From the NCBI GenBank assembly GCA_964016885.1, contig OZ024743.1, positions 267,964,001 through 268,028,000 of the forward strand: a stretch of DNA of 64,000 bases. The letters are read 5' to 3'. Under the pieces are notes generated by a model. That model saw only the letters and a program-made list of their open reading frames with translations, searched no databases and was not told the origin of the DNA. The translations under genes were made by a program, and so were the position numbers. The first letter of the stretch is position 1. The number at the start of each line of letters is the position of its first letter. Positions 17,658 to 49,208 of the stretch are shown here, piece after piece. The stretch is from Eledone cirrhosa (Eukaryota).

Positions 17658-17850
17658 AGTTTTAATATAGATGAGATTCTACAGGACTAGAACTGTTTCA
17701 TTCAGTAGAAATCATCAGGAATCTGATGATTTCTAATGAATGAAACAGTTCTAGTCCTGTAGAATCTCATCTATATTAAAACTGTTATACTCTGCTATGT
17801 ATTGAGTACCTTACTTACTGTGGTTACCTCCGATTTAACCCGGAATAACG
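17658..17850. mobile_element. Family F fold-back cassette (61-bp arms, 4-nt loop, 67-bp tail) built on a hammerhead
   Basis: Arms 17658-17718/17723-17783. Minus strand 17676-17722 reads attc-CTGATGA-tttctactgaat-GAAA-cag ttctagtc ctg-TA-gaat. Second copy at ~40149-40215. Confidence 0.85.
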
Positions 17851-39650: not shown

Positions 39651-39804
39651 TTATAGACACAAACAAATATACATAGTCTAACAAAATTCTTTCGTTGCAC
39701 ATCTGCAACATCATCAGTCGTACTATTATGTTCCTCCTGTTGTATTGTATATCTACGCCATCTTTATTTAATCTGTTTATTTATTTATTTATTTACGTTT
39801 CTGC

Positions 39805-40127: not shown

Positions 40128-40269
40128 TTATATATATATTTATATATAAGTTTTAATATAGATGAGATTCTGCAGGACTAGAAGTGTTTCATTCTTTAGA
40201 AATCATCAGGAATATAAAAATATACTTATATATATATATATGTATAAAATTATATATATATATATATAT

Positions 40270-40694: not shown

Positions 40695-43600
40695 ATATTA
40701 ACAAATGGAAACTATATTTATAAAACCATATTTATTTCATGATACATATTTCAAGGACACCATGTTAAATTATGGTGTGCTTCCATCAGATAAAATATAA
40801 TATAGATCAGTTTTATAAATAAATATTGACAGACCCTTAAAAAATGCAACCATTACTGTTGGAAGCTCCCGGATAGTGGAGTTGAAGCTTAATTATATTA
40901 TTATTAGTATTGGATATTTTTATTTTTAAAATAAGCCGTTGGGTTACGGAGAAAGAGAAAGATAAAGAAGGAGAGAGAGAAAAGAGAGAGAGAGAGAGAT
41001 AAAAGAGAGAGATAGAGACCAAAATAACAGAGAGAGAAAGATATATATAGAGAAAGAGGAGACAGAGAGAAGGGAAGAGAACGAAAAAGTCATATCTTGT
41101 TGAGTTAACTTAACAATTGTGATGAAAGAATAAATAAAATTAGAAATGTTAATAATCATGAATGGAATATACATATATAATATGAGAAATTAACCATTGT
41201 TTAAATATGATTAGATGTTTAGTTAATCATTTAAAAATTGGGATCTATATATTAAGAAATCCATTATTACTAGAGAACTACATATCATATAACACGTATA
41301 CACACGCAAAAATACATATAAATATATATACACACTTATAAAATACATATACATATCTAACTACGTATATAATATATACACACAAAACATAAAGGATTCT
41401 TTAATTTAATTTAAGATATAGGAATCTTATAAAATGTTATAAGTGTTAAGATATTAAAGGAAATTTTATGTTATACACACTTTATGTTATTAAACAAATT
41501 TTTTTAATATAAGTTTTATAAGATTACCTGTTATGTATTTATGGCTGTTATTATATGTATATCTGTCACGAATCTTGGGATAATCACTATACATAAGTGC
41601 AATCAAATTGTATGGATATACACGCAAATGTATATACACAATTCCCACATATACATATATATATATATGTACCCTCAACCAATAGGTAGATACGCATCAC
41701 GTATACATATACATACAGATAGACATACATTCATAAAAACGCATAAAACATATGTACATGTATGTCAATACATATATATATATATACTCACATATAGAGA
41801 GAAGTATATATAAATACAGTACATAGTATAATTGAGTACATAAAATACAAAATAATTATATTACAATTTGGAAATATAACTATAAGCAATATAACTTTAA
41901 AAACAATACAATTTAAAAATATTATAGAATATTTTAAGTTATAATTTCAAAATAATAGTATGTTTAATAGATTTAGTATAGAAATTTATTTTACGTATAT
42001 TTAACTTAAAATTTTGAAAGGATAAACTTTCGAAAGTAGGAGAAGCTATCAGAACAATAAAAAACAAAACAAAATAAAACAAAAAAAAACAATAAAAAAA
42101 TAAGAAATAAGAAATATATTCTCATTTCAAGAGCTCTCAATATATTTCTCTAGAATAGTTTATTATATTTATACTTATTTATATTTAGGAAGAAAAGTTA
42201 TTTTTACTTGAGTGTATAATCAGTCAAAAAAAAAAAAAAAGATGAAGGAATCTAATGATTTATTGACAGGTTTAATATATTAATACAATTAATTAATTAA
42301 TTATATACTACATTTTAAATTTATATTTATATTTAAACGTTGAGTTTAATCTATGTCTGCAGCAACTGAATAAATTATTTCTTAGGTTCAGGGAATTTTT
42401 GGTATCTAATATAAAGAATATTTCCTCAATAAAAAGATCGCAATTTTCTGAAGAGGAGTTAAAAGGAGTAGCTTTTGAAATAATATTCCAAATCAACGAA
42501 TATTCAACGTTCTTTAGTTTAGGACCCATAATAGGCTAGATAGAGAAGTTGAAGACTTTTTGTTTGGATCTGAAAATTAATTTTTATGATTATTGAAGCG
42601 GGATTTAAACTCTGTGGAAGTAGATCCCACATAATTAAATGAATTTAAATTAGTTTTTACATTACATTTACTACATTTTTAGCTAAGCAATTGTTATTTA
42701 ACGGACAGTTAGATTTATTTCTACAGTTACATTTATCAAAATGGATATTGCTTGGGTTATTATTGGTATTTTGGTTAGGTTTTAAATTTCTATTATTAAT
42801 TCTATTAATATTTTGCGCTAAATTTTTGGTGGAAGAATAAGTTAATTTTATAGTATGTCTATTAAAAATTGAGTAATATCTATGTGTTCTAGAGAAGCAT
42901 TTGTCAAGAGCTTTAAAAAATAGTTTAGCAATAGGGGTTTTAATATTTAATGAGAAAAAGGAAGCGAACCATAATATGTTCCTAGTTCTATTTCTTTTTC
43001 GGCTTTCGGAATTAATGTAAGGTTTTCTATTATAGTTGTTAAAATTGTTACGATTATGGTTAGTTGTTATATTATTATTATTATCGATGTATTTTATTTT
43101 ATTTCCATACCCAGCTCTACCTAACGCTTCGTTGTAATAATGTGCTTTTTCATCAAATATATTCTTATTAGCTGAAATTCTCGAAATTCGTTCGTGTACA
43201 GAGCTCACTATAGTATTTTTAACGGATCTGGGGTGACTAGAGTTAAAATTGACATAATTTAAGTTCTCATTTAGTTTGTGAAATGGATAATGAAGACATG
43301 TGTTAAGATTTAGTGTTACATCTAGAAAATTAACTATTTTATGGTTATTCTCTATTTCTACTTTTAGATTAAGGTAATTAAAAAATTGTATAATTTGTTT
43401 TCTTTTTCTATTTAGTTCACAGTTATTATTTTCTATAAGTAAAAGCATGTCGTCACGATATAAACCTCCGGTTATCTCAGGTATTTTTCTATGTAGAGAA
43501 TTAATTATAAATAGGCCCACAAGATCCGTTACCTGAGCGGAATCGGATGATCCCATAGTGATGTCGAAATTGTTATTTCTATCTGCCCTAGTCCAGAGTT

Positions 43601-44090
43601 GGTTATTAAATTCTATTATGTTTTCCGTGCCGATAATATAATGTGCATTTCATTGCTAGTTAGGTCTGTATGTTTAAATGCGTAAGTTAGTGCCTTATTC
43701 TGTAGGTTAGGAGTGATAGATGAGTAATAGTTAGCAATATCCAATTGAATAAACTTATTATTATAGTTATATTTAATTTCTTTAAATCAATCGATAACTT
43801 CACTAGTTCCTTTCCATAATTTAAAACAAGATAAATTCTTAATTTGTGGTATTATTCTGTCTAAAATATTTTTGCTAAGTCTGCCAAGGTCCGATTTAGA
43901 TGGTGCAATTAATCTGACTGGTAAATCAGTTTCGAAGTTCCTTTTATGATCCTTCATATTAATCTTAGGTTTCCTTGGCATGAAGGGTTGTGTCCTATTT
44001 TCAATGCCTAGTTCATGCATTATATAAGAGGCATCTGTATTCAATTTGTCATGGTCGTCTTTATTCGCTACTATGTATTTCTTCCTTAAT
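40695..44090 (-). mobile_element. Penelope-like element (Naiad-type): RT + GIY-YIG remnant, ~1.6-kb 3' UTR ending in family A HHR region
   Basis: [28 protein letters not shown]; MGSSDSAQVTDLVGL..GLYRDDML..NFLDVTLNL; linker CNCRNKSNCPLNNNC; YVGSTSTEFKSRFNNH. Coding ~42308-44090 with stops and frameshifts; truncated by (TA)n. Confidence 0.9.
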
Positions 44091-44700
<610 letters not shown>

Positions 44701-44703
44701 GTA

Positions 44704-45568
44704 CAGTTCCTGTACACAGCTAAGTATTCTATAAGTCTCTAGCTGTGTCATTCTCGATAAAAGCACTGGATATGTAGTCCTGATGAATTCTAACAAGAAT
44801 GAAACGCGTAGATTACTTCCCTTGCTTTTATCGAGAATCTAATTGTAATACGTGACGTATTCTATTCTATAGCGATTAGGTCTTCAAAATGTTTATTATA
44901 AACATACAGAATATTTTCGAATATTCTATGTCTATATTCACATATATATCGCTATTTCAGAGCATTTATTCCAATTTCTAATTTCTGCCGGACCGGCAAC
45001 CGCTCTTTCAAACCAGTTCCTGTACACAGCTAAGTATTCTATAAGTCTCTAGCTGTGTCATTCTCGATAAAAGCACTGGATATGTAGTCCTGATGAATTC
45101 TAACAAGAATGAAACGCGTAGATTACTTCCCTTGCTTTTATCGAGAATCTAATTGTAATACGTGACGTATTCTATTCTATAGCGATTAGGTCTTCAAAAT
45201 GTTTATTATAAACATACAGAATATTTTCGAATATTCTATGTCTATATTCACATATATATCGCTATTTCAGAGCATTTATTCCAATTTCTAATTTCTGCCG
45301 GACCGGCAACCGCTCTTTCAAACCAGTTCCTGTACACAGCTAAGTATTCTATAAGTCTCTAGCTGTGTCATTCTCGATAAAAGCACTGGATATGTAGTCC
45401 TGATGAATTCTAACAAGAATGAAACGCGTAGATTACTTCCCTTGCTTTTATCGAGAATCTAATTGTAATACGTGACGTATTCTATTCTATAGCGATTAGG
45501 TCTTCAAAATGTTTATTATAAACATACAGAATATTTTCGAATATTCTATGTCTATATTCACATATATA
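44704..45568 (+). mobile_element. Tandem array of a 310-nt hammerhead-containing unit (~2.8 copies), non-LTR-retrozyme-like
   Basis: Units start at 44704, 45014 and 45324 and look identical by eye; each contains an intact HHR; flanked by (TA)n. Confidence 0.9.
44774..44816 (+). ncRNA. Minimal type I hammerhead ribozyme (copies at 45084-45126 and 45394-45436)
   Basis: gtagtc-CTGATGA-attct aaca agaat-GAAA-cgcg-TA-gattac; palindromic helix III ACGCGT; predicted cleavage after GUA (44810, 45120, 45430). Confidence 0.9.
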
Positions 45569-45614
45569 TATATGTTTATATATATATATTTATATATATA
45601 TATGTTTATATATA

Positions 45615-45698
<84 letters not shown>

Positions 45699-45705
45699 AT
45701 ATATA

Positions 45706-46148
45706 CAATATATTAGTAAATGGAAACTATATTTATAAAACCATAATTATTTTTTTATATATATTTCAAGGGCAGCCAAGGTAAATTATAGTGCGATTTA
45801 ATCAGATAAAATACAGAATTGTTTTATAAATAAATATTGACAAACCCTGAGAAAAGACAACCTCAACGGTTGAAATTCGCGGGATAGCGAATTTCAACTA
45901 TCCAGCGAATTTCAACAGTTGAGTTTTTCTCTTTTCCAGGTATGTCAATATTTATTTTATCTGATGAAAGCGCACCATAATTTACCTTGTTTGCCCTTGA
46001 AATATATATAATAAAATGATAATGGTTTTATAAATATAGTTTCCATTTAGTAATATATTGAATATTTACTCCACTAACTTGTTGAGTGCTTTATTACAGT
46101 TATAAAAATGTTTTAATCTTGTTGAATCCCAACAAATTAAATATAACA
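45706..46148. mobile_element. Family A fold-back cassette with intact HHR ~45954-46017 (+)
   Basis: Arms 45706-~45870 / ~45905-46060, tail 46061-46148. attttat-CTGATGA-aagcgca..tgccctt-GAAA-tatata-TA-ataaaat. Confidence 0.85.
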
Positions 46149-46232: not shown

Positions 46233-46782
46233 TTGTAATAAAATGAAAACGAAATTTCATTTCTCACTCTTAGTACGGCACTTACTTAAATGCAAGTATG
46301 TATGTATACGTACATACATATATGTATACAGACGTACAGTAGCATGCATATACAGGTACACATACATATATGTACGTATCGGTTTAGTGGACGGTTATTA
46401 TAACGCCCGCTTTGTTCGTTTGTAAACAAACTGAACAGCCTGAATTTATGCCGTACGGTGTTAAGGCAACCACGTCACCTTTTTGTTCAACACTGACACA
46501 GGAACGATGTACTAGTTTCAAGTTTGTTAGCTATCATCAGCACCGTATACCCTTCTGCCAGATGGTTGAACGTTCGAAAGTATATACTTTCCTTATGAAA
46601 ATTAACGGCTGAGCAGCCCAATTTGCATATCGAGTGAGTTCTATCGGCCAGGCGTACCGAAAACGATAAGTTGTAATAAAATGAAAACGAAATTTCATTT
46701 CTCACTCTTAATACGGCACTTACTTAAATGCAAGTATGTATGTATACGTACATACATATATGTATACAGACGTGCAGTAGTA

Positions 46783-47944: not shown

Positions 47945-49208
47945 TACATATATATACATATATATATGCACATATATTTTTTTGTGTTGCACCATAGAGC
48001 ATGTGTGTTTACGTATGTCATTGTGTTTATATGTGGGTAGAGATGTGTGCTGATGTAGGTATGTATGTTGACGTGTGAATGTTGTGGGTTCGTCTTAGGG
48101 AGAAGTGTTTAGACGGGGTCCGTATTTGTTAATGAAGTAAGATTCCTTGCTGATGCGCTGGGTGTGGGTGGCATTATCTTTAAATTTGTAGAGGGGAAAG
48201 ATTCTGAAGTTGGGATGATTTTGGGTGGCACAGGTATCAATGTGTTCACTCAGTGGTATTTTCCTGTATTCCCGTATTTTGATTTGGGATCTATGGACAG
48301 TCATGCGTTGGCGGAGGCTGTTTTTGGTCTGGCCTATGTATTGTTCTCGACAACCTGAACAAGTTAATACATATATTAGATTTTCCGATGCACATGTGAA
48401 ATTGTGTTTTACTATAAAACGTTGTCCAGAATTCCGAACCCTCTATTAGGTTGATGCAAATGCCACAGTTGGGTCTATCGCATTTTTTTACTGTGGGTTT
48501 CGTTGTTGTGGTTGGCAGTACTTTGGCATGTGTTAAGATGTTTTTCATTGACTTGGATTGTCTTTTGCTCTTTATGATATCGTGTGTTCGTAGAATTTGG
48601 TTGATTCTATGGTCCTTTTTCAATACAGGGATGTTCTGGAGGATGGTGTCAAAGGCCTCATTGTTGAGGGGTTGTGTGTGGAGATGTATGGAAGAGCTTT
48701 TAGTTTTGGTTGATTTACTTTAGGGTGTCTAAGGTCCTGGGTACTGAGTTTTAGGGCACGTTGGATTCTAATATACGTATTTATTAACTTGTTCAGGTTG
48801 TCGAGAACAATACATAGGCCAGACCAAAAACAGCCTCCGCCAACGCATGACTGTCCATAGATCCCAAATCAAAATACGTGAATACAGGAAAATACCACTG
48901 AGTGAACACATTGATACCTGTGCCGCCCAAAATCATCCCAACTTCAGAATCTTTCCCCTCTACAAATTTAAAGATAATGCCACCCACACCCAGCGCATCA
49001 GCAAGGAATCTTACTTCATTAACAAATACGGACCCCGTCTAAACACTTCTCCCTAAGACGAACCCACAACATACACACGTCAACATAGATACCTACATCA
49101 GCACACATCTCTACCCACATATAAACACAATGACATACGTAAACACACATGCTCTATGGTGCAACACAAAAAAATATATGTGCATATATATATATGTATA
49201 TATATGTA

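Follow-up and report, generated by a model that had tools for sequence, protein, structure and literature searches.

The window analyzed here, a 64,000-nt stretch of the Eledone cirrhosa genome, contains a tandem array in which TRF detected a period of 310 bp, 2.8 copies and 100% matches (Table 1). This agrees with the earlier note, which had described about 2.8 identical head-to-tail units without an ORF, inserted within (TA)n: the longest coding frame in the unit was 59 codons, stop-to-stop, with no other found, and the array sits between two (TA)n tracts. An ORF encoding reverse transcriptase (RT) plus GIY-YIG, by which autonomous Penelope-like elements (PLEs) are recognized, was absent from the unit, and parsing of the insertion anatomy revealed no terminal repeats beyond the units. 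Unit position 1 was set at 44811, the first base past the predicted cut. At the 5′ junction (44700-44716), a 7-bp hairpin possibly represents a 4-nt snap-back of the cDNA end; this reading is weak, as the sequence is only one base off plain TA. A putative MITE-like element with inverted repeats (45710-46065) adjoins the right-hand (TA)n tract.

Table 1. Features of the tandem array and its flanks (window coordinates)
Feature	Position	Strand	Basis
Retrozyme insertion with a single arm of 2.8 units, running from unit position 204 to 139	44704..45569	+	TRF
Predicted monomer 1 (310 nt), bounded by two cut sites	44811..45120	+	
Predicted monomer 2, same sequence as monomer 1	45121..45430	+	
(TA)n target tract, left	44089..44700	.	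TRF
(TA)n target tract, right	45562..45713	.	TRF
Start site of the short end, unit 131-139, which grades into the (TA)n target	45561..45569	+	Junction patterns
Tail-end start site, unit 165-172; internal here, end of the second arm at other loci	44975..44982	+	
Type I hammerhead 1, predicted cut after 44810	44774..44816	+	Sequence, core pattern, weak Rfam match
Hammerhead 2, predicted cut after 45120	45084..45126	+	Core pattern, weak Rfam match
Hammerhead 3, predicted cut after 45430	45394..45436	+	Core pattern, weak Rfam match
16-bp helix closing the ribozyme, 44750-44765 with 44823-44838	44750..44838	+	

Hammerhead cores were located at 44780-44804, 45090-45114, and 45400-45424, with GUA cut sites ending at the predicted cut positions of Table 1. 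The architecture consisted of a 6-bp stem I, a 4-bp stem II and, replacing a stable stem III, a 6-nt palindrome computed to self-pair at -8.1 kcal/mol; such a short palindromic stem III has been tied to dimeric hammerhead activity (PMC4209133). An Rfam scan of the array returned nothing at the gathering score, the weak match per unit being to Hammerhead_HH9 (23 bits vs. a cut-off of 52, E = 0.005). The earlier description of an intact hammerhead in each unit, with GUA sites 310 nt apart, holds for the core letters and the spacing; "intact" refers to letters only, and cleavage is predicted. All 6 pairings previously named as signs of dense self-complementarity were exact reverse complements in the unit. 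The predicted fold of the monomer had z = -4.4 in linear form (0 of 100 shuffles as stable) and z = -5.5 in circular form (0 of 60 shuffles). At unit position 287 (window 44787), the window variant has an A-U pair at the base of stem II, vs. a U-U mismatch in 71 of 92 loci. Loci of the A-U class carried the fewest single-unit variants (0.048 per unit), and for this reason the class looks like the youngest wave. Further families of repeated hammerhead-like motifs occur in the genome, as seen at window 46516-46540 (-) and 39690-39717 (-) and at loci L046, L054, and L061.

Genomic copies were counted by sequence patterns of the core and the junctions. In the 3.0-Gb genome, the exact core occurred 3,923 times and the degenerate core 17,681 times, with 0 occurrences of control patterns; the family thus amounts to approximately 5.5 Mb, and the mean length in the sample gave an estimate of approximately 2,000 insertions. 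These other copies, the existence of which the earlier note had made a test of its proposal, support retrozyme identity, recent origin, a (TA)n target and rolling-circle reverse transcription. Metazoan non-LTR retrozymes are tandem non-coding units of 150-450 bp with a type I hammerhead, for which RNA circles have been shown and mobilization of the circles by PLE or LINE enzymes has been proposed (PMC7229834). The unit of 310 bp, present at many dispersed loci, falls within this size range, and low GC content and self-pairing are likewise features of the elements described by Cervera and de la Pena in 2020 (PMC7229834). The window array is a member of a young, high-copy tandem hammerhead repeat of this class, a non-LTR retrozyme.

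Loci were sampled on contig C1 via the exact core (n = 12) and the degenerate core (n = 5); further loci, taken among the first 100 matches listed for each junction, came via the long-end junction (n = 20) and, for the others, the short-end junction. Parsing of 112 records, one of them a duplicate, gave 111 insertions including the window, and a 54-bp fragment (L121) fell below the length filter. The median arm length was approximately 1 kb, and 14 of 188 arms reached 10 units. At a 15-kb locus (L283/L284, G000:C1:97461000-97476900), where one arm holds about 45 units and variants are repeated in blocks, a retrozyme insertion is in transition to a satellite.

In 96 of the 111 insertions, two arms diverged, the first in reverse and the second in forward orientation, and 14 of the 17 loci picked regardless of their ends were also two-armed. 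A single arm was found in 15 insertions, including the window copy, a minority form that would have been left by the short-end primer only. In RNA sense, the aligned arm ends were at about 131-139 (short end) and 154-172 (long end). Every complete two-armed insertion had one end of each kind (95 of 95) and none had two of one kind; the end pairs were 139/165 in 63, 139/170 in 17, and 139/172 in 7. Genome-wide, 1,296 short-end junctions with TA and 1,013 junctions exact at position 165 were counted. The region between the ends forms a tail of approximately 26-35 nt for the commonest end pair, and a value near 35 nt was adopted because the aligned ends include TA overlap and the commonest short junction is at 130-131. 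A pure TA run of at least 8 flanked 90 of the 95 complete insertions on at least one side. Target duplications, readable at only 2 clean sites of the 95, were 12 bp at L037, a non-TA site, and 14 bp at L170. Inner (5′) ends were scattered and mostly joined via a few shared bases or short insertions, with overlaps of 1-7 nt in 48 of 94 joins. The permuted start points anticipated earlier were therefore found at the inner ends, which vary, and not at the 3′ ends, which are fixed at two sites. Six arm 5′ ends were at unit position 204; an apparent excess at 201 was a query-rotation artefact and disappeared on recount. One locus (L031:3343-3520) has an additional inversion at the inner junction and thus four segments.

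As judged from sequence anatomy, this combination of fixed ends, inverted 5′-truncated copy, tail, (TA)n target and duplication is the signature of PLEs, and the two-armed inverted majority points to PLE machinery. In LINE-1 twin priming, two target primers give rise to an inverted 5′ part, the internal position of the second primer varies, and the two arms are contiguous in RNA coordinates; in the retrozyme, by contrast, neither start site varies and each inner end is independent of the other. PLEs have been described with an inverted 5′-truncated copy, a tail of 30-40 bp and a bias for (TA)n (PMC8557442), as head-to-head copies with a 31-bp tail and duplications of 8-10 bp (PMC3846280), and with a predicted dimer, nicking and extension of both strands, and a tail delimited by two internal start sites (PMC11167929). 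The endonuclease-bearing PLEs (Penelope/Poseidon, Neptune, Naiad, and Hydra) thus have the same inverted copy, tail, start sites and (TA)n or AT-rich targets, and duplications of approximately 10 bp; unlike them, the retrozyme is without an ORF and its arms are many perfect turns of the 310-nt unit. Multicopy head-to-tail insertions are also formed by non-autonomous PLEs of the Chlamys group, such as MRC1; their 3′ ends, however, are similar to that of the autonomous partner, and canonical hammerheads are missing from most Chlamys elements (PMC8557442). The retrozyme class is already known, and its two-armed anatomy with fixed ends was not found in the papers searched, including PMC7761336 and the portion of PMC7229834 consulted, which describes neither two-armed inverted insertions nor fixed start sites nor microsatellite targeting; subscription papers and Repbase lie outside this search. 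RNA circles were demonstrated in PMC7229834; for the present family they are proposed from the insertions, as follows.

The 92 well-covered loci fell into 37 haplotypes, 26 of which occurred once, and the same haplotype was carried by both arms at 59 of 61 testable loci, vs. 9.4% for random pairs. Single-unit substitutions within loci amounted to 0.033% per base (670 units), and a variant present in some but not all units was seen at only 5 of 78 loci. The arms crossed the cut site freely, with 2 of 205 arm 5′ ends at this site vs. 4.6 expected. For many different variants to be fixed locus-wide, the template must pass through a monomer bottleneck, and for the cut site to be read through cleanly it must be ligated or uncut; a circle is favored as the template because it would satisfy both. 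A 311-nt variant was discarded as proof of ligation, its extra base being two places after the cut and not at the cut. Three of four runs (X1, X3, and X6, with differing organism labels) each gave one closed 340-nt contig with the minority haplotype of the window; these were also set aside as evidence for or against circles, since a tandem array or a circle yields such contigs alike.

We consider it probable that the template of the non-LTR retrozyme is a monomeric RNA that is likely a circle, and that a PLE enzyme makes the copy by priming from the two strands of the target. The RNA would be transcribed and self-cut via dimeric hammerheads into 310-nt monomers, which would be ligated into circles. 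A Penelope-like enzyme would then nick both strands of (TA)n, and synthesis from each nick would start at an RNA position fixed for that nick. Extension from either primer would continue around the circle over differing numbers of turns, and short homologies would connect the two cDNA ends in head-to-head orientation; we infer one template molecule per insertion. Counted against this reading are the basal U-U mismatch in stem II at 71 of 92 loci, DNA-level expansion of the longest arrays, the lack of an autonomous PLE resembling the unit among about 110 PLE-selected loci, cleavage in only 1 of 9 Xenopus dimers (bioRxiv 10.64898/2026.07.22.740005), and the report that a PLE in vitro used mainly uncut RNA (PMC11167929). 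The last of these speaks for the same double priming on one or two uncut linear multimeric transcripts of a homogeneous parent array, with circles as by-products, a reading that also accounts for the fixed ends, the cut-site read-through and the shared haplotypes. The ribozyme, needing a dimer, may be slow, and at L118 the outermost units of the two arms carry one variant in mirror position. We nevertheless regard a linear multimer as unlikely, because it predicts mosaic new variants, whereas the variants seen were fixed in all units of both arms in 37 haplotypes, and the rarity of partial-unit variants calls for a monomer bottleneck; in addition, unless they grew at the DNA level, arms could become shorter but never longer from one generation to the next.

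Much less probable is that one cDNA folds back and copies itself, the second arm being trimmed by the endonuclease, or that the arrays result from DNA satellite growth plus conversion. Self-priming has been put forward as the origin of PLE inversions (PMC3846280), overlaps of 15-48 nt occur at some inner joins, and arm lengths correlate weakly (Spearman 0.27); however, a fold-back copy should never exceed its template, and the longer arm was the short-end arm at 38 loci and the tail arm at 47. Only 1 mirrored pair occurred among 34 testable single-unit variants. This lack of mirroring is weak evidence, since single-unit variants were unevenly spread among loci (p = 0.003), which suggests that many are post-insertional; a bias of these variants toward RT errors was not significant (p = 0.066). 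The longest arrays (L052, L095, and the 15-kb L283/L284) carry block-duplicated variants, as satellite growth would leave, and expansion at the DNA level therefore also occurs. Such expansion leaves mosaics, unlike most loci, and target-derived changes were confined to the terminal unit at most loci. That the assembler duplicated or inverted identical units, as the 100% identity of the window units might suggest, has a negligible probability in view of the locus-specific haplotypes, unique flanks, fixed end geometry and target duplications, and of an older sister family with matching anatomy.

This sister family, found via L174, has units of 307-316 nt, is identical to the 310-nt unit in 214 of 320 columns (67%), and is an older relative with the same anatomy: its arms are inverted, its targets are TA, and its two end positions are the same. 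The short-end site is positional, because the sister family keeps the position despite a less TA-like sequence after it. A predicted fold is common to both families, with two-sided changes at 19 of 84 predicted pairs, a count based on five sequences from two families and few independent events; the 16-bp helix was preserved with two-sided changes.

Rare locus-wide variants, counted by hand in RNA sense, comprised 12 A>G and 5 T>C events, vs. 6 A>G and 15 T>C among single-unit variants (Fisher p = 0.021, post hoc). At position 276, a UAG in stem I, the variant recurred on at least 4 backgrounds with markers 8-19 nt away, and unit positions 20 and 259 are opposed in the 16-bp helix. The tail arm of L060 had A in the three outer full units and G in the two inner units, and the other arm had G throughout, as if the template had changed mid-synthesis. 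Whether A-to-I editing lies behind the A>G variants stands at about even odds; selection for changes tolerated as G-U, template switching or conversion are the alternatives. A bolder version of the circle model would have one RNA circle printed twice at each insertion: both target strands would be primed 35 nt apart on that circle by a PLE protein acting as a dimer, tail arm first, A-to-I edits on the circle would be written into germline DNA at every turn, and L060 would record an edit made mid-synthesis. We offer this tentatively, the balance being somewhat against it. The origin of the tandem and inverted structures of PLEs has been called undefined (PMC8557442); if the double-print reading were true, about 2,000 near-identical insertions would explain the inverted-copy-plus-tail structure of all PLEs.

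Mobilization of retrozymes via circles and PLE enzymes has so far been a hypothesis drawn from co-occurrence and phylogeny. Retrozymes have been argued to originate from PLEs and to be mobilized by them as non-autonomous derivatives, the evidence being co-occurrence and pLTR phylogeny in vertebrates (bioRxiv 10.64898/2026.07.22.740005), whereas the evidence here is an insertion footprint. The same preprint favors local tandem growth by unequal crossover; here, no sequence likeness of the unit to an autonomous PLE or pLTR, beyond the hammerhead stem, was found in about 110 PLE-selected loci. The very young insertions of this family bear both footprints, of a circle and of a PLE, and would offer a rare genomic view of the spread of such RNAs. 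With two named start sites and a conserved predicted RNA fold, this question and that of the origin of the PLE structures could both be addressed by a simple in vitro experiment combining the 310-nt RNA with a (TA)n target.

The genome contains many PLEs. One Hydra-like family, the clade being named by the CxCx5C motif following PMC8557442, has intact frames of 758-759 codons with nearest-neighbor identity reaching 99.7%. Its ORF is closely preceded by a hammerhead whose stem II is similar, and its inverted ends are TA-flanked; its tail, however, is approximately 65 nt, and the family is only a circumstantial candidate for the autonomous partner. Next to the array, a decayed Hydra-like PLE (42308-44086, -) with RT, CxCx5C linker and C-terminal nuclease region is 5′-truncated at the (TA)n tract. 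It belongs to an older high-copy family and was dismissed as partner, no sequence common to the unit being found in 30 loci; it is an incidental neighbor. The 5′ region of a second Hydra-like family appeared by eye to resemble the unit, and this was rejected when 485 of 500 shuffles scored as high. Elsewhere in the window, two divergent GIY-YIG fragments of a Neptune-like PLE lie within a larger inverted duplication (48098-49056), and the second Hydra-like family is represented by short ends bearing a minimal hammerhead at 17660-17850 and 40150-40210, the former being inverted with a tail of approximately 65 nt.
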